Positions 1,615-49,376 of a stretch of 64,000 nt of DNA are shown here, piece after piece. The notes below the pieces were generated by a model. That model was not told the origin of the DNA, searched no databases, and saw only the letters and a list, made by a program, of their open reading frames with translations. The stretch is from Candidatus Zhuqueibacterota bacterium (GTDB lineage: Bacteria > Zhuqueibacterota > Zhuqueibacteria > Thermofontimicrobiales > Thermofontimicrobiaceae): positions 1,558 through 65,557 of the forward strand of contig JBMOPW010000027.1 in the NCBI GenBank assembly GCA_049322915.1. Reading direction: 5' to 3'. Positions within the stretch are counted from its first letter, which is position 1; every line of letters starts with the position of its first letter. The position numbers and the translations under genes are program-made.

Positions 1615-1776
1615 TCGCTGCGAACGGACAGTCGATTCAGCAAAGATTGATCTTGACGGAATCGTATTTTCATGAAAGTGATCGGGGACGCATGGTTGCC
1701 ACCCATCATGTATGAAAGAGAACGCCGGCGCGTTGCATTTCGGGCCGGGAAAAGAAAATTGAAAGGAACAGGGACT

Positions 1777-4473
1777 ATGATTCATCCGCCAGTGAATTTA
1801 AAATGCGAATACCTCGCTAATCCTCTGGGCGTTGTCACGCCTTCGCCCCGCTTCTCCTGGCTTATCGCTGCTGATGCAAGGAATAGCACTCAGGCCAGGT
1901 GCCAGATACGGGTCGCAACCCAGGAAAATCTGCTGCATGAAGGACGCGCCGATATGTGGGACAGCGGCGTCTTGGAGACAGATAATAATTTCAATATCCC
2001 GTACGAGGGAAAGGCGTTGCAGGCCGGCGCTCGCTATTTCTGGTGCGCGCGCTGGTGGGACAATCATGGAACAGCCAGCGACTGGAGCAGCAGCGCATTT
2101 TTTGAAATGGGGGTGATGAATTCGCAGGACTGGCAGGCGGGGTGGATCACAAAAAAGGAGTTCGTGGAATTTGATATCAAGCGCAATGAGCCGATCGTGA
2201 AACAACTGGGGCCGTTTCGCCAGGCCTTTGCTGCGTATTTCAGAAAAGAATTTTCCGCCGCCGGACAGATCAAAAAGGCGCGCGTTCATGTGTGCGGGCT
2301 GGGCTATTACGAGCTGCGGATCAATGGCGGGAAAGTCGGCGATCACGTGCTGGACCCGGCGCAGACCGACTATTTCAAGACAGCGCTCTACGCCACCCAC
2401 GACGTGACGCAGATGATTCGGGAAAACAACGCCCTCGGCGTCATGGTTGGCAATGGCCGCCATGTGAAGAACTACTTTTATCCGGATCCCAAACTGATCC
2501 TGCAACTTCATCTGGATTATGAAAATGGCCGCACCGAACTCATCACGACTGATGAAACGTGGAAAGTCTCCCACGGCCCGTTGATGGAGAATGGCATTTA
2601 TTTCGGCGAGAAATACGACGCCCGATTGGAAATGCCTGGCTGGGACGCTCCCCAATTCGATGATGTGAGCTGGGAACAGGCGCTGGTCACCACCGGGCCG
2701 GAACTTGCGCCGCAGATGATGCCGCCGATCCGCGTCATGGACACGCTGCGACCGATGCGGATTATCAATCCCGGGCCGGGGCGGTATGTGTACGATTTCG
2801 GTCAGAATTTCAGCGGATGGGTGAAGCTGTCCGTCCGCGGCCCGCGCGGGACCGAGGTGACGCTTCGATTCGCCGAACTGATTGAAAACGATGGCAATTT
2901 GAACACGTTCCCCAACGGGAACGCGGAAGTCACGGACACCTACATTCTCAGCGGTTGCGGCGACGAAGTGTACGAGCCGCGTTTCACCTATCACGGATTT
3001 CGCTACGTCGAAGTCGCCGGTTTTCCCGGCGTCCCGACGCTGAAGAATCTGGATGGAAAATTCATCCACTCCGATGTCAGCGAGGCCGGCGATTTTCACT
3101 GTTCGCATCAGCTCATCAACGCGATTCACCGCAATACCCTGTGGGGCCAGCTCTGCAATTTAATGAGCATCCCCACGGACTGCGCGCAGCGCGACGAACG
3201 ACAGGGCTGGATGGGAGACGCACAACTGGCTGCCGAGGAAGCCATTCTGAATTTCGACATGGCCGCATTTTTCACCAATTATCTGCGGCAAATTCAGTTA
3301 GCCCAGGCCGATGACGGCGGTCTGCCCGATGTCGTTCCGCCCTATTGGAATATGTTGCGCCCGGCGGACCCGGCATGGGGTACCGCCTATATCACCATCG
3401 CCTGGTATGTCTATTTTTATTACGGGGACACGCGGATTCTGAGCCAGCATTTTGACTCAATGCGGCGCTACGTGGATTTTCTCACCGCTCAATCGGACAA
3501 TTTCATCATTCGCCATCTGGGCAAATACGGCGATTGGTGTCCCCCGGGCAGCATCATTCCGAAAAAGACGCCGGTGGAATTGACCTCAACGTGGTACTAT
3601 TATTCGGATGTGTTTCATCTGGCAAAGATGGCCGCGGTGCTGGGCAAGCGCGACGAGTTCACCCATCTCACCCATCTTACGGAGGAGATTAAATCTGCCT
3701 TCAACAAAGAATTTTTGAAAGACGACCAGTATGCAGCGCACCGCGTCAGCCCGGTGGACATCGCGCCGAATCAAACGGCCAACGCGCTTCCGCTGTACCT
3801 GGACATGGTGCCTGATGACAAAATAGCGACCATTGTGGAGAAATTGCTTCTGGCCGTCACGCGCGACCAGGACTATCACCTGGACACAGGGATCATCGGC
3901 ACCCGATATCTGTTCGATGTATTGACGCGCCATCATTTCGAAGATGTGGCGTTCAAAATTGCCACGCAGGAATCGTACCCTTCCTGGGGCTACATGCTCG
4001 CGGAAGGCGCGACAACGCTGTGGGAGCGCTGGGAGAAGATCACCGGCGGTGGCATGAATTCGCACAATCACATCATGCTGGGCAGCGTGGATGCCTGGTT
4101 TTACAAGTCCGTCGCCGGCATTCGCTGCCTGACCCCGGGCTGGGGCCGCGTGGAATTCCGACCGATCATGGTGAAAGACTTGAACTATGCAACCGCGCGG
4201 CTGAAAACCTTGCGCGGGGAATTCTTCATTTCATGGGTGAAAGAAACGTCCCGGCTCACAATGATTATTGCCGCGCCGGTGGGCGTCACGGCAGAAATTT
4301 ATCTGCCGCGACTCTGGCAGCACAGCCACATCAGCGAAGGAGGAACGCAACTCAGTACTCAGAAAAAGCGCATCGCCACAGGCGGCGCCGTTCAATTCAT
4401 CCGGGAAGAAGACAGGTACTTCGTTTTTGAAGCAGGCAGCGGCTATTACCAGTTCACCGTGGAGCCGGCATAA
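1777..4473 (+). CDS. Alpha-L-rhamnosidase, glycoside hydrolase family 78
   Basis: About 900 aa with bacterial rhamnosidase N-terminal and six-hairpin catalytic regions (LKCEYLANPLGV.., large C-terminal domain). Start moved to ATG 1777 (MIHPPVNL); the ORF-track upstream extension is likely spurious. Confidence 0.8.
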   Translation: MIHPPVNLKCEYLANPLGVVTPSPRFSWLIAADARNSTQARCQIRVATQENLLHEGRADMWDSGVLETDNNFNIPYEGKALQAGARYFWCARWWDNHGTASDWSSSAFFEMGVMNSQDWQAGWITKKEFVEFDIKRNEPIVKQLGPFRQAFAAYFRKEFSAAGQIKKARVHVCGLGYYELRINGGKVGDHVLDPAQTDYFKTALYATHDVTQMIRENNALGVMVGNGRHVKNYFYPDPKLILQLHLDYENGRTELITTDETWKVSHGPLMENGIYFGEKYDARLEMPGWDAPQFDDVSWEQALVTTGPELAPQMMPPIRVMDTLRPMRIINPGPGRYVYDFGQNFSGWVKLSVRGPRGTEVTLRFAELIENDGNLNTFPNGNAEVTDTYILSGCGDEVYEPRFTYHGFRYVEVAGFPGVPTLKNLDGKFIHSDVSEAGDFHCSHQLINAIHRNTLWGQLCNLMSIPTDCAQRDERQGWMGDAQLAAEEAILNFDMAAFFTNYLRQIQLAQADDGGLPDVVPPYWNMLRPADPAWGTAYITIAWYVYFYYGDTRILSQHFDSMRRYVDFLTAQSDNFIIRHLGKYGDWCPPGSIIPKKTPVELTSTWYYYSDVFHLAKMAAVLGKRDEFTHLTHLTEEIKSAFNKEFLKDDQYAAHRVSPVDIAPNQTANALPLYLDMVPDDKIATIVEKLLLAVTRDQDYHLDTGIIGTRYLFDVLTRHHFEDVAFKIATQESYPSWGYMLAEGATTLWERWEKITGGGMNSHNHIMLGSVDAWFYKSVAGIRCLTPGWGRVEFRPIMVKDLNYATARLKTLRGEFFISWVKETSRLTMIIAAPVGVTAEIYLPRLWQHSHISEGGTQLSTQKKRIATGGAVQFIREEDRYFVFEAGSGYYQFTVEPA

Positions 4474-4522
4474 CGCCGGGCCATCGATTGATAACCGCTC
4501 GGGAATCAGGGAAATCGACCCA

Positions 4523-5761
4523 ATGACACGGCAATCCGAAACACGAACTGTGTATGACTACATAAAATCGAACTGGCAGAATACGATTCGGTATGAACCC
4601 GATGACCAGGGAACGCTGCTGGGTTTGCCTTTTCCATACACCGTCCCCTGCCAGAGCGAAAAAACCATGCAGAACTATTTCTACTGGGATACCTATTTCA
4701 CCAATGTCGGTCTGCTGCTGCAGGGATTTGTTGACCTTGCTCGTAACAATGCGGACAATCTTTTGTTCCTGCTCCGGAAATATGGATTTGTGCCCAATGG
4801 GAATTGCACCTATTTTTTGAACCGCTCGCAGCCGCCCTATCTTGCGCTGATGGTCAGGGAAATTTTCGATCGGACCGGGGACAAAACCTGGCTCCACCGC
4901 GCCTATGACGCCCTCAAAGTTGAGTACGATTTCTGGGATAAAAAGCGGAGCACACCGGTCGGACTGAATCGCCATTTTCATCACGCCACGGCGGAGGAGC
5001 TTCACCACTTTATTGATCACGATGTGAAAGACCGCGTTCCTGTCACTGCGAGCGATCCGGCCGGGAAAATCCGCGCGGCTGAGCACTATCTGGCTGAGGC
5101 AGAGACTGGCTGGGATTTCACTCCGAGATTTGAAGGTCGCGCATCGGATTTCGTCCCGGTGGATTTGAACAGCCTGTTGTATCAGGTCGAATTGAACCTT
5201 GCCCGGTTCAGTCAGGAATTGGGGATTGGCGAAGAGGCTCACTGGCTATCGCTGGCCGAGGCCCGGCGGACGCTGTTCTCGCGTTTTTTATGGGATGAAG
5301 AAAACGGCTTTTTCTATGACTACGATTTCGTCCCGCGCCGGCGGAGCGCCGTCGCTTCTCTGGCTGGCTTTCATCCGTTATGGACAAGGATGGCGACGCC
5401 GGCCCAGGCCGAGGCGGTGAGGTCCAACCTCTCCAAATTCGAATTCGACTTTGGGATGGCAGTGTGCGAGCAGGGCGGTCGAAGCAGCCTGTACCAGTGG
5501 GATTTCCCGAATGGCTGGCCTCCGCTTTATTACATCGTGATTCAGGGATTGAGGAACTACGGCTATGAACAGGACGCCCGACGGATTGCCGGGAAATTCG
5601 TCCGGGTCGTCAGCGCGAATTTCCAGGCAACGGGTGATTTGTGGGAAAAATACAATGCCGTGGACGGCTCGATCCGGGTGATTAATGAGTACGACATGCC
5701 GGCCATGCTGGGCTGGACTGCCGGCGTTTTCGTCCATTGCATCCATTTTTTAGAGCAGTGA
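4523..5761 (+). CDS. GH37 trehalase-like glycoside hydrolase
   Basis: Both GH37 signature regions are present: NYFYWDTYF and QWDFPNGWPPL. Start set at ATG 4523 (MTRQSET). Short overlap with the rhamnosidase end. Confidence 0.7.
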   Translation: MTRQSETRTVYDYIKSNWQNTIRYEPDDQGTLLGLPFPYTVPCQSEKTMQNYFYWDTYFTNVGLLLQGFVDLARNNADNLLFLLRKYGFVPNGNCTYFLNRSQPPYLALMVREIFDRTGDKTWLHRAYDALKVEYDFWDKKRSTPVGLNRHFHHATAEELHHFIDHDVKDRVPVTASDPAGKIRAAEHYLAEAETGWDFTPRFEGRASDFVPVDLNSLLYQVELNLARFSQELGIGEEAHWLSLAEARRTLFSRFLWDEENGFFYDYDFVPRRRSAVASLAGFHPLWTRMATPAQAEAVRSNLSKFEFDFGMAVCEQGGRSSLYQWDFPNGWPPLYYIVIQGLRNYGYEQDARRIAGKFVRVVSANFQATGDLWEKYNAVDGSIRVINEYDMPAMLGWTAGVFVHCIHFLEQ

Positions 5762-5780
5762 TTTTGCTGCCGCCTATCCA

Positions 5781-7373
5781 TTATCCCTGACGATACTCTG
5801 CCCAGCGAATTCCTAATTTCCGCATGCGCGCGCGGAGGGTGTGAGGATTGATTTTCAGCAATGTTGCAGCTCCGGACGCGCCTTCAATTTTTCCCTGTGT
5901 TTTTGCCAACGCCCGAATGATATGCTTTTTCATGGCTTCGTCCAATGAACAAATTTCCTGTGGTATTTGGAAATAGTTCGCTTCGGCTTTTACCTGATTA
6001 TGATTTGGCTCAATTTTTTCTGACCAGCCCAGCGCCTTGCTCACCTCCAATTGATTCCCATCCCCAAGCAGCGCTGCGCGATCGATGACAGCGCCAAGCT
6101 CGCGAATATTGCCAGGCCAGGGATATGCAGCGAGCGTCCCAATGTCTTCTTCCGAGGGTAGCTGAACCGGCAAGCCGAAGCGGATGGCCGAGCGCCGGGC
6201 AAAATGCTCGGCTAATTCTTTGAGGTCTTCGAGGCGCTCCCGCAGTGGAGGCAGGAAAATGGGGAAGGTCGCGATTCGATACCACAGATCGTCGCGGAAT
6301 TGTCCGTGCGCCACCATCGACGTCAGATCGCGATGAGTGGCCAGGACAATGCGGACATTCACTTTAAGCGGATGTTTGCCGCCAACCCGCTCCAACCAGC
6401 CATCCTGCAGAACGCGTAAAAACCGAACCTGCGCCGGCAGGGGCAGTTCGGCCACTTCATCTAAAAACAGCGTGCCGCCATCAGCCCGTTCGAACCAGCC
6501 CTTTCGCGATTCAACGGCGCCGGTGAATGCGCCGCGTTCATGGCCAAAAAGCTGGGAGTCGATGAGCTCTGAGGGAATCGCTCCGCAGTTCACGCGGATG
6601 AAAGGCCCCTCTTTTCGGCTGGAATTATTGTGAATAGCCCTGGCGATGACTTCTTTCCCTGTGCCTGTCTCTCCGAAAATCAACACGGGCACATCGGATT
6701 TCGCCACCAACATGACCCTCTCCATTACTTTCTTCAAACCCCCTTCGGCTCCGACGATCACGTCACCGATTTCTTTCCGACTCAATTTCGTGAGCAGTGT
6801 TGTTTTATCCGCTTCCGCAGCTTCCCGTAAACTGATAATTTCCCTGAGCTGGCTATCGTTTTTTAAGGCCACGGAAAATGGCTCGATTAAAGTCCGCATC
6901 AATTCCGCATGATAGCGCGTGAAGGTCTGTCCTTGTTGAGCGACGAAGACGAGAAATGGATAGATGCCATCGTCTATCGTCAGCGCCGTGGATAATATAT
7001 CGAGGTGCGACGGAATGGCCGTGGGGACAAGAAGCGAGAAAATGGACTCGCAATGGTGATCCTGATTTCGGTGCGCGATCTGTCGGGTGCGAAACAAGCT
7101 CATCAACCGTTTTTTTTCCGCGGAGTTGATTTTTGTTGAAGCGAAATACGCAGCGTCTGATTCGGACTCGCCGAATCCAATCGCGACAGTGTCCAGAGTG
7201 GCATGAGCGTCATCGAGCATTCGAATGAAAATTTGTGAAATGGGCATGTGTTGCCGCAGTACGAGCGCGATCTGGGGGGTCGATTCTGTAATTTTAATAT
7301 GGCGGCATGCTTCACGATAGGCGTCTAACAGAATGGGCCGAAATTTTTCCATAGTCTTCCCTTGATATTTCAT
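5781..7373 (-). CDS. Sigma-54-dependent transcriptional activator (GAF sensor + AAA+ sigma-54 interaction domain + Fis-type HTH)
   Basis: Walker A GETGTGKE, GAFTGA sigma-54 contact motif, C-terminal HTH, and a ~190-aa N-terminal GAF-like region. Divergent from the sbp-cysTWA operon. Confidence 0.8.
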   Translation of the reverse strand: MKYQGKTMEKFRPILLDAYREACRHIKITESTPQIALVLRQHMPISQIFIRMLDDAHATLDTVAIGFGESESDAAYFASTKINSAEKKRLMSLFRTRQIAHRNQDHHCESIFSLLVPTAIPSHLDILSTALTIDDGIYPFLVFVAQQGQTFTRYHAELMRTLIEPFSVALKNDSQLREIISLREAAEADKTTLLTKLSRKEIGDVIVGAEGGLKKVMERVMLVAKSDVPVLIFGETGTGKEVIARAIHNNSSRKEGPFIRVNCGAIPSELIDSQLFGHERGAFTGAVESRKGWFERADGGTLFLDEVAELPLPAQVRFLRVLQDGWLERVGGKHPLKVNVRIVLATHRDLTSMVAHGQFRDDLWYRIATFPIFLPPLRERLEDLKELAEHFARRSAIRFGLPVQLPSEEDIGTLAAYPWPGNIRELGAVIDRAALLGDGNQLEVSKALGWSEKIEPNHNQVKAEANYFQIPQEICSLDEAMKKHIIRALAKTQGKIEGASGAATLLKINPHTLRARMRKLGIRWAEYRQG

Positions 7374-7559
7374 TGATGTCTGTGATATATGCTGGAATTT
7401 GCTGTTAAATATTACGGAATCATTTGCATAAAAGCAAGATTAAATTTTCAACGCATTGGAATTTAATGAAATAATCGGGATGAATTTCTCTGGTATGGCG
7501 ATTGTAAAGACTGAAATACCAATGAGACTGAAAAATGAACTTCATCAGGAGGAATGACA

Positions 7560-8591
7560 ATGAAAAAGGTATGGAGTGTATTCGCTGTTGTTTTGCTCTG
7601 CGGTCTATGCCAGGTCTGCGGTAAAAAGGAAATGCAACCCAGCGATACGATAACGCTGGGCGCTTATACGGTGCCGAAGGAGGCGTATCAGAAGGAGATC
7701 ATTCCGGCATTTCAGGCGTATTGGCTTGAAAAGACCGGGAAGCGGGTTCAATTCAATGAATCGTACATTGCCTCAGGCGCCCAGTCGCGGGCAATCATCG
7801 CCGGTTTCGAAGCAGATGTTGCAGCGCTTTCGCTGGAGAGCGATGTGGATCGGCTCGTGGAAGCAGGGCTCATCGCTCACGAGTGGAAAAAGAAACAGTA
7901 TGATGGCATGGTATCGCGATCGGTGGTCGCGATTGCGTTTCGCCAGAGGAATCCGAAACAGATTCGGGATTGGGTCGATCTGGCGCGTCCCGGGGTGAGT
8001 GTGCTTTATCCCAGTCCCAAAACATCGGGCGGCGCCATGTGGGACGTGAACGCTATTTACGGGGCTGGATTGAAAATGAGTGAGCTAGAAACAGGGCAGG
8101 CGGATCCTGCGGCAGCAATGGTGCTGTTAAAGGCGATCCAAAAAAATGTGAAAGTGATGGATAATTCCGGCCGGGCTTCTGTGACAACGTTTGAAAACGG
8201 AGTTGGCGATGCCCTGGTGACTTATGAAAATGAGATTTTGCTGCGAATAAAACAGGGACGAACGATGGAATACATCGTTCCGGCGGCCACAATTCTCATC
8301 GAAAATCCCATCGCTGTCATCGACAGGAATGTGGACAGGCACGGCAATCGCGAAGTGGTTGAGGCATTTGTCGCCTTTGTCCTGACGAAACACGTGCAGC
8401 GTATCTTTGCAGACTACGGCTTTCGTTCGGTGGATGAGGAAGTGAATCGCGAATATGCCGATAAATTTCCGCAGCCGCAGCACTTGTTCGACATCAATTA
8501 TTTAGGTGGCTGGAAACTGGTGCAGGAGAACCTCTATGGCGCCAGGGGTGTCTGGTCGCGTATCATAGAAGAGTCAGCTCATGAAAATTAA
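7560..8591 (+). CDS. sbp: Sulfate/thiosulfate ABC transporter periplasmic substrate-binding protein
   Basis: Strong similarity pattern to Sbp/CysP (NPKQIRDW, GVSVLYPSPKTSGGAMWD, TFENGVGDALVTYENE). Signal peptide present. AGGAGG Shine-Dalgarno 7 nt upstream of ATG 7560. Confidence 0.8.
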   Translation: MKKVWSVFAVVLLCGLCQVCGKKEMQPSDTITLGAYTVPKEAYQKEIIPAFQAYWLEKTGKRVQFNESYIASGAQSRAIIAGFEADVAALSLESDVDRLVEAGLIAHEWKKKQYDGMVSRSVVAIAFRQRNPKQIRDWVDLARPGVSVLYPSPKTSGGAMWDVNAIYGAGLKMSELETGQADPAAAMVLLKAIQKNVKVMDNSGRASVTTFENGVGDALVTYENEILLRIKQGRTMEYIVPAATILIENPIAVIDRNVDRHGNREVVEAFVAFVLTKHVQRIFADYGFRSVDEEVNREYADKFPQPQHLFDINYLGGWKLVQENLYGARGVWSRIIEESAHEN

Positions 8592-9420
8592 ACCGCACCT
8601 TTTTCCGTTGCCGCCAAAGGAGGACATCATCCTGCGGAGTCTCTCCTTTTTCTACATCGGGCTGCTCATTATTCTTCCGATTGTCGCGTTGATGAGCCAG
8701 GCATTCCATGGGGGGATTGCTTCGCTTTGGGCGAATATCTCCAGCCCGCAATCTGTGTATTCGCTCAAACTCACCTTTACAGCGGCCCTGTTCATGGTGG
8801 TCATCAATATCCTGACCGGAACAGCGACGGCCTGGGTGATGGTCCGCTATTCGTTCCCGCTCAAAAGTTTGATGAACTCGCTCATCGATTTGCCATTCGC
8901 CATACCCACCGTGGTAACCGGCATCATGCTTGTCGCCATGTACGGGCCGGATAGTTTCATCGGCGAATTCTTCAGTCGCAGGGGAATCGAAATTATCTTC
9001 AACAAGCCCGGCATTATTCTGGCGCTGCTGTACGTCACTTTCCCGTTCGTCGTGCGGACAGTTCAACCTGTGTTGCTGGAAATGGAGGTTGATATGGAGG
9101 AAGCGGCAAAGACGCTGGGTGCATCCACCGGGACGATATTTTTTCGGGTCGTTCTGCCCACACTGCTTCCGGCAATTCTCACCGGCGCCGCCCTTTCTTT
9201 CAGCCGAGCGCTGGGCGAGTTTGGCTCCATTGCCATTGTCTCGGGGAATATCCCATTTAAGACCCAGGTCGCGCCGGTGTATATCTATGGTGAACTTGAA
9301 AGTTACAATCAGCAGGGCGCCATGGGCATTTCAGTGGTATTGCTCATTAGTTCCTTTGTGATTCTCACCATGCTCAACATCATTCAAATCTGGAGTCGAC
9401 GGCATGAAAAAGCTCAGTGA
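8581..9420 (+). CDS. cysT: Sulfate ABC transporter permease CysT
   Basis: 279-aa polytopic permease with the EAA-like ABC permease loop. Overlaps sbp and cysW, indicating an operon. Confidence 0.8.
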   Translation: MKIKPHLFPLPPKEDIILRSLSFFYIGLLIILPIVALMSQAFHGGIASLWANISSPQSVYSLKLTFTAALFMVVINILTGTATAWVMVRYSFPLKSLMNSLIDLPFAIPTVVTGIMLVAMYGPDSFIGEFFSRRGIEIIFNKPGIILALLYVTFPFVVRTVQPVLLEMEVDMEEAAKTLGASTGTIFFRVVLPTLLPAILTGAALSFSRALGEFGSIAIVSGNIPFKTQVAPVYIYGELESYNQQGAMGISVVLLISSFVILTMLNIIQIWSRRHEKAQ

Positions 9421-10240
9421 TTTTCGGAAGAGAAGCGCTTCATATTCATGGGGTAAAATTATCCTGATCATTCTGGTGGTGGGCTGGTTCCTCGTGTTGA
9501 CCATGCTGCCCCTGTATGGCATCATCCGGGAGGCATGGAAAAACGGCTGGCAGAATTTTGTAACGTCCATTGTCGCGACGGAATCGCTGCATGCGCTGTT
9601 GCTGACGTTGCGGATCACGATTGGCGCTGTCGTCATCAATACTTTCTTTGGGGTGATACTGGCGCTCGTCCTGGTGAAACATACCTTTCGCGGCAAGTTA
9701 TTGTTCGAGGGTTTGGTCGATTTGCCCTTTGCCGTGTCGCCGGTTGTGGCTGGATTCATGTTCATCATCCTGTTCGGTCCCAATGGCTGGATCGGCAACT
9801 GGTTGGAACTGCACCAGTTGAAAATTGTCTATGCATTTCCGGGCATGCTCATCGCAACATTATTTGTCACCCTGCCGTTCGTCGCGCGGGAAGTGATGCC
9901 GGTACTCAGAGAATTTGGACTGCAACAGGAAGAGGCAGCCTATATTTTAGGCGCGTCCAGATGGCAGACATTCTGGAAAGTGACTCTGCCTTCGATCAAA
10001 TGGGGGCTTGCCTATGGAGTGACGCTGACCATCGCCCGTTCCATCGGTGAATTCGGCGCCGTATTGGTTGTGAGCGGCAGTATTATTCACAAAACACAGA
10101 CAGCCACGTTGCACATTCATCAGGAGTTCACTGATTTCAATTACGCCGGCGCGTTTTCATCGGCGATTGTGCTGGCGGCGATTTCATTTATACTGTTAAC
10201 CACCATGCAGCGCGTGTACAAACGGAAAGGGGTGAATTAA
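9404..10240 (+). CDS. cysW: Sulfate ABC transporter permease CysW
   Basis: 278-aa permease, paralogous to CysT, translationally coupled to it. Confidence 0.8.
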   Translation: MKKLSDFRKRSASYSWGKIILIILVVGWFLVLTMLPLYGIIREAWKNGWQNFVTSIVATESLHALLLTLRITIGAVVINTFFGVILALVLVKHTFRGKLLFEGLVDLPFAVSPVVAGFMFIILFGPNGWIGNWLELHQLKIVYAFPGMLIATLFVTLPFVAREVMPVLREFGLQQEEAAYILGASRWQTFWKVTLPSIKWGLAYGVTLTIARSIGEFGAVLVVSGSIIHKTQTATLHIHQEFTDFNYAGAFSSAIVLAAISFILLTTMQRVYKRKGVN

Positions 10241-40112: not shown

Positions 40113-41258
40113 TCAGAACGCCTCGACCCGTTCGATCATCTTCTCATAATTTTTCAACGTGCGTGAATTCAGAATTCGGCCTAATGGGCACGCGGACGGC
40201 ATCAGCACAAAACCGCGGCCAGTCCCGGCAGCGCCCTGCTCCAGTGCACGTTTCACTTTTTCAGCAAATTGATCAGTGGGCAGGGTTTCGATATCGCTGA
40301 TCTCCAGATTGCCGAACAGCACCATATCCTTCCCGTAGTTTTGTCGCACAAAATCCAGATGAACGTCGCCCTGCGGCGGCGGTTCAATCGGATCGAGTCC
40401 ATCGACCTGCAATCTGGCGATTTCATCCAGCAGCGCCTTCAGATTTCCGTGGGAATGAATGCGCACATAGCCGCCATTGCGGTGAATCGATTGAATCATG
40501 GGCGCGATATAATTGGAGACATATTCCCGGAAAAGGTAAGGCGGCAGGTACGGCGGCGATGCATATTCCGGGCCGTAAATGCGCCATAGCCGGCCCGGCA
40601 GGGCGCTGGAAACGATCTCGGTTTTTGAATAAAGCGCCTCAGCAAATCGGTCCAGCAGGCGACGGAATAGCGTTCGCTCGGTCAGCGCGATCACGGTATA
40701 TTGCGCCATATCGAACAGCGATGCAGCGAGACAGAGGGGATCCGGGGTATCCAGCATCACGATGCCGGAATCGCCCAGATGCTGCTCCGCGGCCAGGATG
40801 GCGTCCGGTTCGAAATGATCATCAGCGGGGAGGTGAGGCATGGTGAGGAACGCCGCGAGGTCGTCGGTATTTTTCAGCAAGGGCTCCTCAGTCCACACGG
40901 TGTTGGTATCCGCATCGCGTCGGGTTCGGGTGGTCAAAATGCGCTGACCGACGCGAACGGTCTGAACCGTGAATCGGCTGCCATTTCTCAGAAATACCCG
41001 TTCCTTTGAGAGGCCATGGATGGGATTGGGCAGCACAGACATAAATGAAGCGCCGCGCATGACAATCCGATCGGTCTTTTCCCGGGTCAGATCAATCAAC
41101 GGTCCCCACGACGGATGGGAATAGATATTGAAGGGATCGGCATCGTTCGGATTTTCATCCAGCCCATTGAGCTCGTAAAATGAAACCGCCGGCCGATCGA
41201 CTGCCTCCCCCCGCAGGGTTGCCATGAGGCGTTCTCGTCGGGTCATCATTCCTTTCAA
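40113..41258 (-). CDS. Uroporphyrinogen decarboxylase (URO-D) family protein, MtaA/CmuA-like
   Basis: N-terminal MTRRERLMATLRGEAVDRPAV and C-terminal GFVLMPSACPL motifs typical of the URO-D methyltransferase-like family. Confidence 0.65.
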   Translation of the reverse strand: MKGMMTRRERLMATLRGEAVDRPAVSFYELNGLDENPNDADPFNIYSHPSWGPLIDLTREKTDRIVMRGASFMSVLPNPIHGLSKERVFLRNGSRFTVQTVRVGQRILTTRTRRDADTNTVWTEEPLLKNTDDLAAFLTMPHLPADDHFEPDAILAAEQHLGDSGIVMLDTPDPLCLAASLFDMAQYTVIALTERTLFRRLLDRFAEALYSKTEIVSSALPGRLWRIYGPEYASPPYLPPYLFREYVSNYIAPMIQSIHRNGGYVRIHSHGNLKALLDEIARLQVDGLDPIEPPPQGDVHLDFVRQNYGKDMVLFGNLEISDIETLPTDQFAEKVKRALEQGAAGTGRGFVLMPSACPLGRILNSRTLKNYEKMIERVEAF

Positions 41259-41272
41259 TGTGAAAAAATCAA

Positions 41273-42046
41273 TCAGTGCCGAAGCGCCAACTGCACTAAG
41301 TTTGCAATGAATACCGCCGTCAAAGTTGATAACAGAGTGCCGATGAGGACGTATTCGGCAAATTCACGACTTTTTAGATCTTTTCGAGCAAAGCTTTTCA
41401 CTGCAACGATGAACCCGATCGCGACCAATTGATTGTTGAGCACGAAGTAATAAATCAGCAATCGCTCCAACAGGCCGATAATCCTGCCGGCATTGTACTC
41501 CTGTTTATCCACCACGGTGGTGATTGTCTGGCCCGCTGATTCTTCGTGCGCAGGCGTCAATGTGAAAGTCTGAAAAATGAGTCGAATGAAAATATTGGTC
41601 TCATTGGTGACAAAAAATGCGCCGGTCAGAATTGGGTTGAGCGAGCGCCAATCCAGCGCGCTTAAAAAATCGATGATTAGGGAAATGTCAGCCCATGATT
41701 CCAGATGGGCCAGCAAATGCGGATTGAAGTTGAGCCTGTTTCTCGGAGCAAAGACGAGACTGAAAACCACGATGAACCCGATGAGCGAAGCCACCCGGAC
41801 AATATTGACCCACTCAATTTTCTTCTCCAGCAGGAATACCAGCCCATTCAAAGCCAGCATCATGAAAACTAACAGCGCGAAAAGAAGATTCATCTCGAAC
41901 ATGAGGGTTCCCAGAAGCTGGAGAAAGACAATCACGCCTGTCTGTCGCAGTGTAATCGGTTCATCCCGGAAAGTGAACATGAGTCGTGAGAAAAGCACCA
42001 CATTGAACAGGTAGTAAAATTCCGTCATAACTGGCCTTTCAGACAT
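41273..42046 (-). CDS. SatE-like polytopic membrane protein (DUF3307-like)
   Basis: About 250 aa with 7-8 TM helices. Directly downstream of and overlapping a SatD-like gene. Confidence 0.45.
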   Translation of the reverse strand: MSERPVMTEFYYLFNVVLFSRLMFTFRDEPITLRQTGVIVFLQLLGTLMFEMNLLFALLVFMMLALNGLVFLLEKKIEWVNIVRVASLIGFIVVFSLVFAPRNRLNFNPHLLAHLESWADISLIIDFLSALDWRSLNPILTGAFFVTNETNIFIRLIFQTFTLTPAHEESAGQTITTVVDKQEYNAGRIIGLLERLLIYYFVLNNQLVAIGFIVAVKSFARKDLKSREFAEYVLIGTLLSTLTAVFIANLVQLALRH

Positions 42047-42663
42047 CGGTCGAGCGTTTTTTCGATTTCAGTGAAAATCGGGATGATAATGTTGAGAGCG
42101 CCGGCGTTTATGGTTTTATACACGGCCTGCTCGGAAATGCGCAGACGTGCGGCAATCGATTTGACTGGCGTTTTCTGCAGCGACATTTCGAGCACGCGCA
42201 GCCTGGTCTCGTTCCACTTGCTCACATTGTGGGAGATGAGGTGCAGTGTATGCAGATGAAGCGAATAATTCGGAATTAGTTCGCCAGCCACTGAAAATAA
42301 ATAGCCGGATTTTTTCAGGTCATCGATTCCATCCCGGGCAGAGTGAAACGCCGGGCCGTCCATTCCAATGGCCTGCTTTGAATTGATGGGACTGATGATT
42401 GCGCCGATAGCCAGGGAAAAGCGCATGGCGTGGGGGTGAATGGCGCACAGAATGGAAACAATATCCTGAAAAATGGATTCCGCGCGGTCGAACACAGCTT
42501 GAATCTCATCCCCAATGGTCAGGGTGTACGGCGAGATGACGGCAGAATTGCGGGCATTCAGCGCTTCCAGCGTTTGCAGTAAGGTGGTATTGAATCGGTC
42601 GCGCTCTTTGATTTTACGCGATGCAATGATATCCCCAATCAGCACTAATTTTTCATCCGGCAT
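42025..42663 (-). CDS. SatD-like protein
   Basis: N-terminal MPDEKLVLIGDIIASRKI matches the SatD-family start. C-terminal HTH-like region. Start set at ATG 42663; the longer track ORF is an upstream extension. Confidence 0.5.
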   Translation of the reverse strand: MPDEKLVLIGDIIASRKIKERDRFNTTLLQTLEALNARNSAVISPYTLTIGDEIQAVFDRAESIFQDIVSILCAIHPHAMRFSLAIGAIISPINSKQAIGMDGPAFHSARDGIDDLKKSGYLFSVAGELIPNYSLHLHTLHLISHNVSKWNETRLRVLEMSLQKTPVKSIAARLRISEQAVYKTINAGALNIIIPIFTEIEKTLDRCLKGQL

Positions 42664-42878
42664 GAGTATCCTCGCTAAACTGAATCGGTTGATTTTGAAT
42701 ATTAAACCAAATGGGTTGGGGAAGGTTCCCGGCATATTTTCTGTGAAATGTACGCGCGGATGGCATTCAAAAAGAAACCAGGAAGTGAGTAAAAATCCAT
42801 CTTCCTGGTTCATTTGATAGTAGGGTTTTCTTTGGGTTATGAGAAATTCAAGTAAATAGAATTGTCGTTTCAATGGGT

Positions 42879-43487
42879 TTAATCGAATGCCATGTCAGTC
42901 TTCCAGACTTCCCAGACTTTGCCGACAAGGTTTGGCCCTGGCGTGAGGATCATTTTTCCGGGCTTCCAACCGGATGGGGTCGCCTCAGTCCCCTTGCTCT
43001 TTCTGACCAACTGAAATGCCTGAATTTGCCGGAGCGTTTCATTGACGTTGCGACCGACCGGAGGAGTGAGCACTTCGAACGCCTGAACAACGCCGTCGGG
43101 ATCAATGAGGAATCGCCCCCTGGTTTCGACGCCGGCATTGTCATCGTAGATACCGTACACCGCGCCTACTTTTCCGCCGGCATCGGATAACATTGGAAAT
43201 GGTATGCCGCCTTTGACCATTTTGGATAATTCATGATCGTTCCACATTTTATGCACAAACATGCTGTCAATACTCATCGATAATACTTCAACACCGAGTT
43301 TTTGGAATTCGTTAAATTTCTCAGCAACTGCTGATACTTCAGTCGCTCAGACAAAGGTGAAATCACCGGGATAAAAACAGAGAACGACCCATTTTCCGAG
43401 ATAATCCGATAATTTCACATTGATGAACTTCCCCTTGTGATAGGCAGGGGCTACAAAATCTGGCGCTTTCTGTCCGACTTTAATCAT
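42879..43487 (-). CDS. Selenocysteine-containing peroxiredoxin (AhpC/Prx family), in-frame TGA at 43347-43349 read as Sec
   Basis: Two same-frame ORFs are separated by a single TGA exactly at the peroxidatic Cys codon: ..YPGDFTFV-[TGA][11 protein letters not shown].. versus Prx FTFVCPTE. The Prx fold continues to the C-terminus. GGAGG RBS lies 8 nt before ATG 43487. Resolving Cys is absent (ATPSGW instead of VCPANW). Confidence 0.7.
43321..43334 (-). other. Candidate bacterial SECIS-like hairpin
   Basis: mRNA UCAGC-AGUU-GCUGA hairpin starting 12 nt 3' of the UGA. The loop contains G and U. The short stem alone is weak evidence. Confidence 0.3.
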
Positions 43488-43836
43488 TTTAGATGCCTCC
43501 GTTTTAATGGTTTTTTCTTCAGTTGGTTTGTCTGGCGCCGGTTCACCGACCGGCCCGCCGGTTGGTCGAGCACAACCGGCTTTGACTTCCTCATCCATAG
43601 TCAATCTCCTATTTTATTGGTAAATGGTTAATGGAGAATTAGTTCGCTGTAATCAGTCGAATGAGTGAATTATAACATCAGAGTTAATTTTCAAATGGAG
43701 CGCTTTCCCTTTGCGGAGAACATTTAGCCGATTCAAGGAGGGAACGCATGTCATAATTTGCAGTCAGCGATGGACGTTGCTCTTTCAGATAATCGGCAGA
43801 ATGATTGGAAATCAATAATCGAACAAGGTTGAGAAA

Positions 43837-43970
43837 GGTAGCCGTTCACAGGTTCCGGGTTCAGCGTTCCCGGTTGGGGTTTTGGAGATGGTAGCGCGTA
43901 TCATTTTTTATGTTCAAATAGTCCGTCATCAACTGTACGTTATCATTGCCCGTGCACCCTGAACGGTTAC
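43837..43970 (-). repeat. Copy B of the ~140-nt conserved element (5' region of the Sec-peroxiredoxin gene)
   Basis: Reverse complement is about 85% identical to 12886-13028. Same orientation relative to its downstream gene as copy A. Confidence 0.6.
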
Positions 43971-44167
43971 TGAGACAGGCATAGCCAGCATGTTCGAATC
44001 ATCAGCAATGGCGCATCATTCCCTTCAGATGACGCGTTCGGTTTCGGGAGAGTCGAAGAGAATCTCAGAAATGGTTTAATCCAATTTTGTACTTATTTCA
44101 ATATAATAAAGATTCAGTTCCGATTCAAGAAATTTTTTTGTAATAAAACCAGTAAGGTGAATGAAAA

Positions 44168-44650
44168 TTATTTGGGAAAAGAAAAATGCATTTGCACAAT
44201 TACCCAGCGACTGTCCCGCTTCTCAAGGACGCCGGTCCAGCGAACGTTGTTCCACGAGGTCGACCGTCCCTTGAATTCGCCGAAATCGTCCAGCACGGCT
44301 GAATACCAGGCAGCATCGCCGGATTGGGAAATGTGTATCCGCAGTTGTTTGACTTCAAAATGAGTGGCTTTGAAATCGTCGAGCATGAAAAAATTTTCGA
44401 CCACATTTCGAAACTCGGCGAAGCCATCCACTGCGCTGGAATCCGGGTTGATGATGAAAAAAGCAGAATCCCGGGCCACGGCATCGTACAGGGCCTGCTT
44501 GTCTTTGGTGAGCGCCCAGCCAATGGACGTTTCGATGACGGTTTGTATTGTCGCTTTTTCGGCTGCGACATCGAAGGGTTGGGTTGGCGCACAGGTGATG
44601 AAAGCAAAGGATAGAACAAGAGAGATACGTGGGAATAATTTAATTTTCAT
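44168..44650 (-). CDS. NTF2-like (SnoaL/DUF4440-like) lipoprotein
   Basis: Lipoprotein-type signal peptide with cysteine (..AFITC). About 130-aa NTF2-like alpha+beta cone pattern. Weak. Confidence 0.4.
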   Translation of the reverse strand: MKIKLFPRISLVLSFAFITCAPTQPFDVAAEKATIQTVIETSIGWALTKDKQALYDAVARDSAFFIINPDSSAVDGFAEFRNVVENFFMLDDFKATHFEVKQLRIHISQSGDAAWYSAVLDDFGEFKGRSTSWNNVRWTGVLEKRDSRWVIVQMHFSFPK

Positions 44651-44870
44651 CGGATTGGCTCCTCTTTTAAATTGTGATAAGAATCGCGATCATTAAATTG
44701 GTAGGTGAAGTTACGATTTAATTGAATGAAGGTTGCTGTGGGACAGAAAACAATCTATTTTAATGGTTGCTTTGAAAATCAGTATTTTGTATATTTGCCT
44801 TGATTTGAAGGTTCAGTTCAAAAAGAAAATTTCATTGAAGGTATTCTCAAACAGGGAGAGCAAAGAAAAG

Positions 44871-46142
44871 ATGACATCCAGGGAACGCGTGAATTGCGCA
44901 TTAAATCATAAGGAGCCGGATAAGGTGCCGCTGGATCTGGCTGGCAGCGGCGTGACCGGCATGCATGTCAGTTCTGTCTATTTGTTGCGCCAGGCATTCG
45001 GTTTGGATGCGCCCGGGACGCCGGTGAAGGTCGTGGAGCCGTACCAGATGCTGGGCGAAATCAAGCCCGACCTGATCGACGCGCTGGGCGTTGATGTTGT
45101 GGCGCTGGAAGGACGGGGCACGATGTTCGGCTTCAACAAAGAGGGCTGGAAACCGTGGACGACTTTCGATGGCACGCCGGTTTTAGTCCCGGAAAAATTC
45201 AATACGACGCCGGAACCGAACGGCGATATTTTCATGTACCCCAAAGGCGATGCATCTGTGCCGCCCAGCGGACGCATGCCGGCCGGCGGTTGGTATTTCG
45301 ATGCGATTGTGCGGCAGGAGCCCATTGACGAGAGCCAGCTCAATGTGGCGGACAATCTGGAAGAGTTCGAAATTATTTCCGATGAGGATCTGGCCTATCT
45401 CAAAGAGCGGGCGGAGTTCCTGTTTTCGCAGACGGATAAGGCGATTTTGGGAGGTTTCGGCGGCGCCAGCTTCGGTGATATCGCACTGGTTCCGGCGCCC
45501 ATGCTGAAACGGACCAGAGGTATCCGCGATATCGAGGAATGGTACGTCAGCACCGTGATCCGATTCGATTACGTGTACAAAGTGTTCGAGCGTCAGTGTG
45601 AAATTGCCCTGACCAATTTCAAAAAAATTCATGACGCTATCGGCAATAAAGTCTCGGCGGTGTTCATCACCGGGACGGATTTTGGAACGCAAAACGGGCC
45701 GTTCATCTCCAACAAAGCCTATCGCGAATTGTACCTGCCGTTTCACAAGCAGGTCAATGACTGGGTTCATAAAAACACGGAGTGGAAAACGTTCATCCAT
45801 TCCTGCGGTTCGGTGATGGCGCTGATCGAAGATTTCATCGACGCCGGTTTCGATATTTTGAATCCGGTGCAGTGCTCGGCTGCCGATATGGATCCGGCGG
45901 ACCTGAAGCGAAAATTCGGGGATCGCATCACTTTCTGGGGCGGCGGAATTGACACGCAAAGGACGCTGCCCTTTGGCACGCCGCAGCAGGTTCGGGATGA
46001 AGTGAAAAAGAGGATCGAAATTTTCGGACCCAACGGCGGCTTTGTTTTCAATGCCATTCACAATATTCAGGCGCGAACCCCGGTGGAAAATCTGGTGGCG
46101 CTGTTCGAGACATTCAATGAATTCCGCAGCTATTCCAAATGA
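44871..46142 (+). CDS. Uroporphyrinogen decarboxylase (URO-D) family protein (paralog 2)
   Basis: MTSRERVNCALNHKEPDKVPLD N-terminus and URO-D family C-terminus. Start set at ATG 44871, which has a GGGAGAG RBS. Confidence 0.65.
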   Translation: MTSRERVNCALNHKEPDKVPLDLAGSGVTGMHVSSVYLLRQAFGLDAPGTPVKVVEPYQMLGEIKPDLIDALGVDVVALEGRGTMFGFNKEGWKPWTTFDGTPVLVPEKFNTTPEPNGDIFMYPKGDASVPPSGRMPAGGWYFDAIVRQEPIDESQLNVADNLEEFEIISDEDLAYLKERAEFLFSQTDKAILGGFGGASFGDIALVPAPMLKRTRGIRDIEEWYVSTVIRFDYVYKVFERQCEIALTNFKKIHDAIGNKVSAVFITGTDFGTQNGPFISNKAYRELYLPFHKQVNDWVHKNTEWKTFIHSCGSVMALIEDFIDAGFDILNPVQCSAADMDPADLKRKFGDRITFWGGGIDTQRTLPFGTPQQVRDEVKKRIEIFGPNGGFVFNAIHNIQARTPVENLVALFETFNEFRSYSK

Positions 46143-46323
46143 GTGCGGCGCTGCGCCTGGAAGACGAAGAGGACGTCCAGCACCTTGTTCATGCCGTGCT
46201 GACGCTGGAATTCGACGATGTGCAAACCGAAGAATGAAACCAACTTTCCCGGCAAGTAGGCCCAACTCTGAAACCTGCCGGAAATCACTCAATCACGTTT
46301 GAAGAATGAGGTGAACTGAAACG

Positions 46324-47448
46324 ATGAAATTCGATCGGTCGAAAATACAGGTCAGGCCGCTGGCGGAGCGGGAGAGCAAATCGTCCATTGAGAAAATTGC
46401 CGCGAATCCCGATGCCGCACCAGCGCCGTTCACAGGGGACGTTTCGGTACTGACCCGACTGGCCGGGCGCATCATTGAGGCGAGGGAAAATGATCGCAGC
46501 GTCATCATTGCGTACGGCGCGCATCTGATCAAGAACGGCCTGGGGCCGGTCCTGCGCCGGATGATCGAGCAGGGATTTGTCACGCATCTGGCCACGAACG
46601 GCGCCGGAACGATTCATGATTGGGAGTTTTCATTTCAGGGCAGATCGGAAGAAGATGTCAGCCGCTACGCCAGGGAAGGCCAATTCGGCATCTGGGAAGA
46701 GACCGGCCGCTATCTCAATCTCGCTCTGATTTTAGGCGCGGCGCAGGGAAAGGGATACGGCGAATCCATCGGCGATATGATTTGCGCCGATAAGCTGACC
46801 ATCCCGGATGCGGACGATCTCCGCGCCGGACTGATGGCTCAATTGAAGGAACCGGGCCGGACCCTGGAGAATGCCGGCGGTCTTTTTGATCTGCTTGCTT
46901 TCATGGAGAAGATGAAATTGCAGCGCGGGGACGTCGCCATCCCTCACCCGTTCAAGCGCTACAGTGTGCTGGCGGCTGCGCGCTCGGCCGGTGTGCCGCT
47001 GACGATTCATCCCGGCTTTGGCTACGACATCATTTACACCCACCCGTTCAATTTCGGAGCGGCCATTGGCCGGACAGCCGACGTGGATTGGCTGAGGTAC
47101 GTCAACAGCGTGGCCAATCTCGAAGGGGGAGTGTATATGTCCATCGGCTCTGCGGTTATGTCGCCGATGATTTTTGAAAAGGCATTGTCCCTGGCGCGAA
47201 ATATTGCCCGGCAGGATCGGCTTCGAATCGCTGATTTTATGCTCGTTGTGAACGATATTCAGCGCAGCGGCGACTGGAAGTGGGGCAGCGGCGCAGAGCC
47301 GCCCAAGCACAACCCGGCCTATTACCTTCGGTTCTGCAAGACATTCGACCGCATGGGCGCCAGCGAAATGCATTACATCTGCGCGGACAATCGAAATTTT
47401 CTGACCAATGTGTACGCGCAATTGCAGGCCATGACCGGCGGGCGATGA
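46324..47448 (+). CDS. Deoxyhypusine synthase-like protein
   Basis: Colinear similarity to the DHS family (..AYGAHLIKNGLGPVLRRMIEQGFVTHLATNGAGTIHDWE.. versus human ..[39 protein letters not shown]..). The catalytic Lys in the GGGVVKHH position is not conserved (EGGVYMSIG). Confidence 0.45.
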   Translation: MKFDRSKIQVRPLAERESKSSIEKIAANPDAAPAPFTGDVSVLTRLAGRIIEARENDRSVIIAYGAHLIKNGLGPVLRRMIEQGFVTHLATNGAGTIHDWEFSFQGRSEEDVSRYAREGQFGIWEETGRYLNLALILGAAQGKGYGESIGDMICADKLTIPDADDLRAGLMAQLKEPGRTLENAGGLFDLLAFMEKMKLQRGDVAIPHPFKRYSVLAAARSAGVPLTIHPGFGYDIIYTHPFNFGAAIGRTADVDWLRYVNSVANLEGGVYMSIGSAVMSPMIFEKALSLARNIARQDRLRIADFMLVVNDIQRSGDWKWGSGAEPPKHNPAYYLRFCKTFDRMGASEMHYICADNRNFLTNVYAQLQAMTGGR

Positions 47449-47506
47449 GGCGCGGCCATTTCCGGACGGAAGATACGGCAACACAGAAGGAATTCATTCG
47501 ACATTT

Positions 47507-48394
47507 ATGGGACGCCCGCGATATGGGCGCATGACAGGAATTGATTCAGGTGATGATATGGAAATTATTCGACCTTTTGACGGACGCAACATTACGACGG
47601 TATTGTTCGATTTTGATGGCACCCTGTCGCGGGAACGGGACGGTTGGGTGAATGTGATGGTGGCGACCAATTCGGCTGCGCTGGCGCAGGCAGCGCCGGA
47701 AATGTCGCCGGAGGAAGCTGTGGATTGGGTGATTCGGGACATTGAACGCTCCATTGGCATTCCCACATACATGCAGATGAAGCAACTCGCCGCCGAAATC
47801 GAGCGACGCGGCGGACGCGCGTTTCCACCGGGACGGTACAAAAAAGTGTACATATCTGCTGTGGAAGCCATGGTGAATTCCAGACACGCGAAATTTGCGA
47901 ACAATGAAATCGATGCAGAACGCTTGCGCATGCCAGGGGCGCTGGAATTGTTGAAGGCGCTGGCGGAAAAAGTAGGTGAGGAATCGCTCTATCTGGCCAG
48001 CGGCACGGACATTGAACCCATAAAACACAGTGTGAATCTGCTGGGGTTTGCTGAGTTTTTTGGTGATCGCGTGATTGCCTCAGGCTCACTGTCGAGTCTG
48101 GAGCAGTGCGCCAAAAAAAGCGTGGTCCAGCGATTGTTGAATGATCATCACATTCAGCCGGGACAGCTCCTCTGTTTTGGCGATGGCGCGCCGGAAATTC
48201 AGTACACCAGCGATGCCGGCGGGATTTGCGTCGGCGTCCTGTCGCCGGATCAGAGTGACTATGAGCGCAAGGGTCATTTCACTGTGGCTCAAAAACGGGA
48301 GCGGCTCATCAACGCTGGCGCGCATGTGCTGGTATCTGATTACCGGAATGCGGCGCAGTTGCTGGCAGTTTTGTTTGGGAGACAAACGGTTTGA
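47507..48394 (+). CDS. HAD-superfamily hydrolase
   Basis: Motif I FDFDGTLS. The true start may be the internal ATG at 47558. Confidence 0.65.
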   Translation: MGRPRYGRMTGIDSGDDMEIIRPFDGRNITTVLFDFDGTLSRERDGWVNVMVATNSAALAQAAPEMSPEEAVDWVIRDIERSIGIPTYMQMKQLAAEIERRGGRAFPPGRYKKVYISAVEAMVNSRHAKFANNEIDAERLRMPGALELLKALAEKVGEESLYLASGTDIEPIKHSVNLLGFAEFFGDRVIASGSLSSLEQCAKKSVVQRLLNDHHIQPGQLLCFGDGAPEIQYTSDAGGICVGVLSPDQSDYERKGHFTVAQKRERLINAGAHVLVSDYRNAAQLLAVLFGRQTV

Positions 48395-48455
48395 TAACGT
48401 TAAAATTATCTTGAAGTTCACGTGAGTGAGTACAGCCACAGAAAAAAGGATCATT

Positions 48456-49376
48456 ATGGCCATTCCGGACTATCAGACGATTCTGCTTCCTTTGCTCAAA
48501 TTCTTGGGCGATGGTGAAATGAAATCATCCTCCGAGACTTCCGAAAAACTTGCTGATGAGTTTAGATTGAGTGAAGAAGAAAGAAAAGCATTGCTCCAAA
48601 GTGGGCAGCAGTCAATTTTTGTGAATCGTATTGCCTGGGCGAAAGTATATCTCAAAAAAGCCGGATTGATTGAATCACCCAAGAGAGGTTGCTATAGAAT
48701 AACCGAATTGGGTGAAAAAGTTCTGAAAGAAAATCCTTTAAAAATCGATAATGCCTTCCTGACCCAATTTGAAGATTTTAATAGATTTTGGACGAGGCAA
48801 CATGCTGTAAGAAAGAAGGGAGATGAGACTGAATTGGGACCTGATTTATCCAATGACAAAACTCCTGAAGAATTTCTTGAAATTGGATATCAAAAGATAC
48901 AATCAGACCTTATATCAGAAATTTTGAAAAATATCAAGACTTGCTCGTCAACTTTTTTTGAGCGACTTGTTGTTGAATTACTGGTAAAAATGGGATACGG
49001 AGGATCACTTTCCGACGCTGGTAAAACAGTTGGCAAAAGTGGGGATGGCGGGATTGATGGAATAATAAAAGAAGATCGCCTGGGTTTGGATATTATTTAT
49101 ATACAAGCAAAGCGTTGGGAAAATACCGTTCATAGGCCAGAGATTCAAAAGTTCGCCGGTGCGCTACAAGGGCAACGCGCGAAAAAGGGAATTTTTATCA
49201 CAACATCCGATTTTTCAAATGGGGCAAAAGATTTTGTTTCGTCAATTGAAAGCAAAATTGTATTGATCGACGGAGAGCAGCTTGCAAAGTTCATGATCGA
49301 TTATGATATTGGTGTCAGTAGTGTGGCAACTTATGAAATTAAGAGGATTGATTCAGATTATTTTCTTGAAGAATGA
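48456..49376 (+). CDS. mrr: Mrr-family type IV restriction endonuclease
   Basis: Mrr_N winged-helix region (IPDYQTILLPLLKFL) and Mrr_cat PD-(D/E)xK domain (GDGGIDGI..IYIQAKRW). Lower GC than flanks. Confidence 0.75.
   Translation: MAIPDYQTILLPLLKFLGDGEMKSSSETSEKLADEFRLSEEERKALLQSGQQSIFVNRIAWAKVYLKKAGLIESPKRGCYRITELGEKVLKENPLKIDNAFLTQFEDFNRFWTRQHAVRKKGDETELGPDLSNDKTPEEFLEIGYQKIQSDLISEILKNIKTCSSTFFERLVVELLVKMGYGGSLSDAGKTVGKSGDGGIDGIIKEDRLGLDIIYIQAKRWENTVHRPEIQKFAGALQGQRAKKGIFITTSDFSNGAKDFVSSIESKIVLIDGEQLAKFMIDYDIGVSSVATYEIKRIDSDYFLEE

Follow-up and report, generated by a model that had tools for sequence, protein, structure and literature searches.

A predicted selenocysteine peroxiredoxin gene, prxU, with a covarying hairpin next to its in-frame UGA and a conserved N-terminal Cys arm

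The stretch of DNA analysed here, 64,000 nucleotides long and referred to below as the window, very probably contains on its minus strand a functional prxU gene, encoding a peroxiredoxin of the Prx1/AhpC fold and of the thioredoxin-dependent type in which selenocysteine (Sec) would serve as the peroxidatic residue. Direct support was provided by the in-frame TGA codon and its conservation, by the membership of the product in a curated protein family, by a covarying hairpin adjacent to the codon, and by protein-level selection on both an N-terminal arm and the sequence beyond the UGA. The features of the locus and of its surroundings are summarized in Table 1.

Translation of the minus strand gave a single open frame from 43604 to 42879, in which the TGA at 43349-43347 was the sole internal stop. 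The two same-frame ORFs pointed out in the earlier note (43347..43604 and 42879..43277) are thus split by this TGA alone. The codon occupies the peroxidatic position in the context PGDFTFV-U-ATE, and alignments with typical 2-Cys peroxiredoxins in the PDB placed their peroxidatic Cys on the UGA, just as had been proposed. After the TGA, the frame was open from 43346 through to its terminal TAA, and the 23 codons separating the TGA from ATG 43277 contained no stop.

Table 1. Positions in the window of prxU, its predicted elements and the neighbouring genes
Feature	Position	Strand	Remarks
prxU coding sequence, long form	42879..43598	-	239 codons including predicted Sec84, then TAA 42881-42879; based on translation, NF040737 score and homologue alignment
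UGA, predicted Sec codon 84, peroxidatic	43347..43349	-	Motif P77-x-x-x-T81-x-x-U84, here P77-G-D-F-T81-F-V-U84
Shine-Dalgarno-like AGGAGA	43605..43610	-	6 nt upstream of ATG 43598-43596
N-terminal arm motif	43542..43577	-	12 residues (8-19); G8 and C9 invariant; Cys9 a candidate resolving or relay thiol
Internal GGAGG, ribosome-binding-like	43496..43500	-	Within the coding sequence; strict Shine-Dalgarno 5-mer upstream of the internal ATG in 80/81 loci
Internal ATG, codon 38	43485..43487	-	ATG in 80/81 loci, GTG in one; possible start of a 202-aa isoform
Cys74 codon (TGT)	43377..43379	-	Ten residues N-terminal of Sec; from the family alignments
Predicted SECIS hairpin	43319..43336	-	Stem 43336-43330 with 43325-43319; apical loop AGUU 43329-43326
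Thr207 codon	42978..42980	-	Resolving-Cys position of typical 2-Cys peroxiredoxins; EATPSGW vs EVCPAGW (HMMER, 4fh8 and 5zte)
SatD-family/HTH protein	42025-42873		Directly downstream of prxU
257-aa ORF without Pfam match	41273-42046		Downstream of prxU, beyond the SatD-family gene
URO-D-like protein	40113-41258	-	Downstream of prxU
SnoaL-like protein	44168-44650	-	Upstream of prxU
Second URO-D-like protein	44733-46142	+	Upstream of prxU

All profile scores were computed with U read as C. The 239-aa product scored 422.7 bits against the NCBIfam model NF040737 ('peroxi_PrxU'; cut-off, 270 bits), matching profile positions 2-233, and a 202-aa form beginning at ATG 43487 scored 402.6 bits over positions 35-233. 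The PrxU-like layout claimed for the protein was thus borne out at a curated threshold. In NCBIfam, this family carries the name 'thioredoxin-dependent peroxiredoxin'. The score against the AhpC equivalog TIGR03137, 185 bits, fell below its cut-off of 272 bits. The 202-aa form was further matched by Pfam AhpC-TSA (PF00578) at 3.7e-38 and 1-cysPrx_C at 2.8e-05 and by typical 2-Cys peroxiredoxins in the PDB at 1e-47 to 1e-38; alignment of the conceptual U-containing protein to the Prx family thus indicated the AhpC/Prx1 fold. For P0018, a homologue of the Cys form with 70% identity, AlphaFold2 gave a model with a confident core and a mean pLDDT of 85, and its target TM-score against 2-Cys peroxiredoxin structures was about 0.9. 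Sec-containing peroxiredoxins with a TxxU motif are listed as experimentally verified in passages of PMC13188914 and PMC9312934 that cite Sohling et al. (2001), and the conserved motif of these enzymes is given as PxxxTxxU (PMC13188914).

The C-terminal resolving Cys of typical 2-Cys enzymes was found to be absent: the product reads EATPSGW where 4fh8 and 5zte have EVCPAGW, and TPSGW is conserved across the PrxU family in the protein alignment. To this extent, the designation '1-Cys(Sec)-type' given in the earlier note was appropriate. The label may nevertheless be incomplete, since the family possesses an invariant Cys in the N-terminal arm (Cys9) and a further Cys ten residues before Sec (Cys74), which was nearly invariant in alignment A1 and invariant in alignment A3. 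At the position equivalent to Cys74, AhpC of Salmonella typhimurium and human Prx1 and Prx2 have Phe.

A genome scan revealed that relatives of PrxU are encoded in at least 597 GTDB species representatives. The codon was TGA in all 81 loci compared, namely the window and the 80 nearest loci among the genome matches listed, the latter coming from about nine phyla (labelled Desulfobacterota, Spirochaetota, Nitrospirota, Fibrobacterota, Calditrichota, KSB1, Cloacimonadota, Chloroflexota, and Planctomycetota). Five Cys-form homologues fetched as a control (L081-L085) all had TGC or TGT at the peroxidatic codon. In the family alignments, dozens of residues C-terminal to the UGA were invariant, and this strong conservation implied that translation runs on past the UGA. 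Among the matches listed, the nearest proteins were 87-92% identical to the window PrxU. One related locus (L001) was syntenic with window positions 40132-48365 at 71-85% nucleotide identity and shared the TGA. This locus (positions 1139-9474) is contig CAZSBG010000044.1 of a metagenome-assembled genome labelled 'uncultured Cytophagia bacterium', which, as judged from sequence, is the nearest available relative of the source organism.

As predicted, a small hairpin was present on the 3' side of the UGA. Its 5-bp core, UCAGC (43334-43330)-AGUU (43329-43326)-GCUGA (43325-43321), starts 12 nt 3' of the UGA, and the 7-bp version starts 10 nt 3' of it, inside the ORF; the window stem consists of five contiguous pairs followed by an A.G mismatch and a U-A pair. 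The structure was evaluated in an alignment of 63 nt around the UGA (A2), which comprised all 81 loci, contained no indels, and was used to count pairs over 80 distinct sequences, the hairpin being taken in its extended, 7-bp form (columns 23-29 with 34-40, loop 30-33). In this extended hairpin, 99.1% of the cells were paired. Pair 27-36 occurred as GC in 41, AU in 30, UA in 7, and CG in 2 sequences with none unpaired, pair 24-39 as UA in 54, CG in 20, AU in 4, and UG in 1 with a single non-pair, and the loop-closing pair 30-33 as AU in 40, GC in 39, and GU in 1. Double changes were observed at four pairs of the hairpin, and none of 500 shuffles matched the observed covariation score; when the register was slid by 1-3 nt, only 39-69% of the cells were paired. 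In addition, G31 and U32 of the loop, at +22 and +23 from the U of the UGA, were invariant in the 81 sequences. The covarying columns are third positions of Ser, Ala, Val, and Glu codons, and four loci (L018, L034, L067, and L075) combine A at column 24 with T at column 39 and thereby turn Glu into Asp. Such covariation at third codon positions, together with the Glu-to-Asp change, showed that the selection is on the RNA and not on the protein. Among the five Cys-form homologues, the hairpin was lost in three and a remnant was kept in two. With its position, its invariant loop G-U and its compensatory substitutions, the predicted element has all those features of a bacterial SECIS that can be checked by computation, just as the window gene has those of PrxU.

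The window copy of this hairpin is itself weaker than average (-6.2 kcal/mol; family mean, -8.6 kcal/mol), and its A.G (43335/43320) is the one non-pair at pair 24-39 among the 80 distinct sequences. The check by folding the region, which the earlier note had recommended, gave a divided outcome: the single-sequence minimum-free-energy fold was another hairpin, one that takes in the A of the UGA, and the comparative data backed the hairpin originally described. The minimum-free-energy hairpin was rejected because its variable pairs were unpaired in 34-50 of the 80 sequences. Searches with Rfam found neither a SECIS nor any other relevant family in the whole window at gathering thresholds, and no relevant family in 43200-43450 at E-values up to 10, with two chance matches overall.

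The possibility had to be weighed that the TGA is a nonsense mutation, real or artefactual, in a gene for a Cys peroxiredoxin. In a single sequence, TGA is only one base from TGC or TGT, and on long contigs public gene callers do split such genes; the pieces, 82-83 aa and 121-132 aa in length, often go under the names 'AhpC' or 'hypothetical protein'. The TGA is, however, found at the same codon in the 80 nearest genomes, the syntenic relative included; the frame downstream is intact and highly conserved; and the adjacent hairpin covaries. A TGA shared by the 80 nearest homologues and accompanied by a covarying hairpin is not a product of chance, and both a pseudogene, against which the earlier note had already argued, and a sequencing or assembly error are effectively refuted. 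Public gene calls (P0001-P0120 and P0121-P0174) are systematically wrong for the PrxU family. A reading of UGA as Trp, Gly or Cys, by an alternative code or by near-cognate suppression, could appeal to the database proteins: a protein search at E ≤ 1e-30 gave 7135 clusters, and among the best 120, which were read at the Sec position, 101 had FTFV-W-ATE and about ten FTFV-C-xTE. Since the DNA of all 81 loci has TGA, however, the printed W is a gene-caller artefact, arising on short metagenome contigs, where PrxU is called over its entire length and the Sec codon is rendered as W. Moreover, ordinary genes in the window end with TGA more often than with any other stop (14 of the 27 Pfam-supported genes), so that the genetic code is standard and a genome-wide reassignment of UGA (codes 4/25) is excluded. 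Trp or Gly in the peroxidatic position would furthermore be inactive, and a change of code would leave the conserved SelB-type hairpin without a role. We therefore regard decoding as any of these residues as highly improbable.

Another explanation holds that termination at the UGA is normal, giving an 83-residue peptide and a separate piece from ATG 43277, or that the UGA serves as an attenuator responsive to selenium, so that little of the full-length enzyme is produced. RF2 does compete with Sec decoding, and an ATG-initiated ORF (42879-43277) does exist downstream. On the other hand, the stretch of 23 codons that leads from the UGA to ATG 43277 is conserved at the protein level and includes T86, E87, and A90 of the alpha2 helix, and the Prx fold is formed by neither half alone. 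Termination as the normal fate of this message is hardly credible in light of these observations, and a full-length product with Sec at codon 84 is strongly preferred.

As to where this product begins, the homologues were mostly 237-240 aa long and aligned end to end from residue 1. The most likely start of the full-length prxU is ATG 43598, which lies 111 nt upstream of ATG 43487; this placement was based on the conserved 37-residue extension (window 43488-43598, minus strand), which falls within the NF040737 profile, and on the AGGAGA upstream. In 67 of 77 related loci, a strict Shine-Dalgarno 5-mer was present ahead of the corresponding first ATG. For the full-length product, the start of the mechanically called ORF (TTG 43604) and that assumed in the earlier note (ATG 43487) are probably both wrong. 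The GGAGG which that note had placed before ATG 43487 is indeed present, 8 nt upstream, and it is as the signal for the full-length start that it gives way to the one ahead of ATG 43598.

The extension forms an N-terminal arm, in which G8 and C9 were invariant in the family protein alignment. In 77 loci, the amino acids of the arm motif were kept while all synonymous codons were used, including six Arg codons and, for Cys, TGT in 43 loci and TGC in 34. Retention of the amino acids despite such synonymous variation indicated that the arm is translated and is under selection at the protein level. In the AlphaFold2 model of P0018, the arm was unplaced and had pLDDT values of 46-61, which suggests that it is flexible. 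Cys9 is, from its conservation in sequence, a candidate for a resolving or relay thiol. A phmmer search of the whole library with the 37-residue arm as the query returned mostly short N-terminal fragments of PrxU, plus three long repetitive proteins, and it showed no use of the arm as a module on other families. One 97-aa fragment (P0193) carried the same arm followed by the canonical Cys-type active site VVLFFWPLDFTFVCPTEIIA of an FTFVCPTE peroxiredoxin; either ordinary 2-Cys peroxiredoxins may bear the arm as well, or this fragment may have been assembled as a chimera.

The internal ATG and the GGAGG ahead of it were also conserved. In the protein alignment A1, M38 was conserved at 90% or more, and the distance from the end of GGAG to the internal ATG was 9 nt in 62 loci or 6 nt in 14, 76 loci in total. 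Across the seven codons that lead up to the internal ATG, GAG outnumbered GAA by 97:22, whereas the ratio in the gene body was 385:606. This GAG bias and the conserved Shine-Dalgarno sequence pointed to nucleotide-level selection for an internal ribosome-binding site, and its conservation together with that of the ATG makes a 202-aa isoform (U47) plausible beside the 239-aa form (U84). Two isoforms, of 239 and 202 aa, could thus possibly arise from one gene. A bolder and distinctly tentative proposal, which we consider rather less likely to be true than false, is that PrxU genes make a long form whose arm provides Cys9 as a tethered resolving or relay thiol, together with an arm-less short form that is initiated at the internal ATG with its ribosome-binding site. 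If this two-protein reading were true, PrxU would count as a '2-Cys' enzyme of a Sec/Cys kind, resolved by an N-terminal residue, and not as a 1-Cys-type enzyme, and the ratio of the long to the short form would tune oligomer recycling. Within the searchable literature, no discussion of an N-terminal Cys arm or an internal start in PrxU was found.

From these data we infer a course of events that runs from Sec insertion to the reduction of the enzyme. The UGA would be read as Sec, and not as a stop, during translation. The hairpin 10-12 nt downstream would present its invariant G-U in a four-base loop, a geometry recognised by SelB in the fdhF SECIS, and would recruit SelB.GTP.Sec-tRNA(Sec) to the A site, leading to the insertion of Sec84. 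The selenolate held in the PxxxTxxU pocket would then attack the hydroperoxide and be converted into selenenic acid. Because the canonical resolving Cys is absent (Thr207), some thiol must return the selenium to selenol. Thioredoxin might act directly on the selenenic acid; purely as a hypothesis, Cys9 of the flexible arm might instead form a selenenylsulfide that would subsequently be reduced by thioredoxin.

The genomic surroundings were searched for the machinery and partners of such an enzyme. No tRNA gene, that for tRNA-Sec included, was found in the 64-kb window, and none of the 37 window ORFs scanned against Pfam, which included every ORF of selA, selB or selD size, was selA, selB or selD. 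Among the 34 window ORFs split by a single TGA, none was selenoprotein-like except prxU. These negative results for the window count against the Sec reading, as do the lack of an Rfam match, the weaker window hairpin and the different single-sequence fold. The flanking window genes of prxU included no redox partner. Two divergent genes of the URO-D family (uroporphyrinogen decarboxylase/methyltransferase-like) bracket the prxU region, and the window also encodes a Mrr-type restriction endonuclease (Mrr_N plus Mrr_cat; 48426-49376, plus strand) that is unrelated to prxU. Across the 80 other loci, no fixed neighbour gene was found within 5 kb on either side, and oxidative-stress genes recurred: a pyridine-nucleotide-disulfide oxidoreductase with a rhodanese domain (12 loci), a Fur-family regulator (9), rubrerythrin (8), a NifU-like protein (8), catalase (5), and a KatG-like protein (4). 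These neighbour families were confirmed by Pfam, apart from the KatG-like one, which was identified by eye only. In Desulfoferula mesophila (AP028679.1; L081, 6061-6723), a gene for a 348-aa AIRS/AIRS_C protein, which matches selD in length and domain content, is located some 2.3 kb downstream of the prxU homologue of the Cys form.

The prediction of Sec was thus supported as correct but is not new, in that the window gene joins a known, curated and very widespread selenoprotein family: Sec-peroxiredoxins have been known since 2001 and have a curated NCBIfam model. The biological addition is accordingly small, and only the conserved N-terminal Cys arm and the internal start might be new; these could alter the view of how PrxU is recycled. 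For annotation, recognition of prxU yields the right product and identifies the organism as one that uses selenium, whereas standard gene callers cut the gene in two or print Trp at Sec. The comparative alignment of the predicted SECIS describes a compact, well-covarying element outside Rfam, which may merit follow-up.

With regard to known systems, the window protein resembles PrxU of Eubacterium (Peptoclostridium) acidaminophilum in passing the equivalog model, in having its predicted Sec within PxxxTxxU, in lacking the C-terminal resolving Cys, and in its Prx1/AhpC fold. The founding PrxU is reportedly a protein of 203 aa with U47, which agrees well with the short form of the window, where Sec is residue 47 of a 202-aa protein when counted from the internal Met. 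In contrast to that enzyme, the window gene comes from a different, uncultured lineage, and, like most of the relatives found, it also encodes the 37-residue arm with its invariant Cys. Typical 2-Cys peroxiredoxins, such as human Prx2 (1qmv), Arabidopsis 2-Cys PrxA (5zte), and Salmonella AhpC, are about 40-46% identical to it across the whole core, adopt the same fold, and likewise contain the motif DFTFV-x-xTE at the active site and the conserved Arg. It differs from them in having predicted Sec for the peroxidatic Cys, Thr for the resolving Cys, and ATE for PTE, in adding the N-terminal Cys arm, and in not reaching TIGR03137.

An N-terminal resolving Cys is found in yeast Ahp1 of the Prx5 subfamily, and human Prx4 has an N-terminal Cys extension (Cys51), the Cys of which is not catalytic. 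As in these proteins, a Cys N-terminal to the catalytic residue could be an intersubunit partner in the window enzyme; they belong to other subfamilies, however, and the window Cys would lie on a predicted flexible arm, so that any such role for it is purely conjectural. The predicted SECIS, finally, resembles that of E. coli fdhF, in which G23 and U24 are the contacts of SelB. In both, the hairpin lies directly 3' of the UGA within the coding sequence, and the window element has its loop G-U at +22/+23; in the PrxU family, moreover, covariation of the loop-flanking bases resembles that of a closing pair. The window stem (5-7 bp) is shorter than that of fdhF and has no bulged U.
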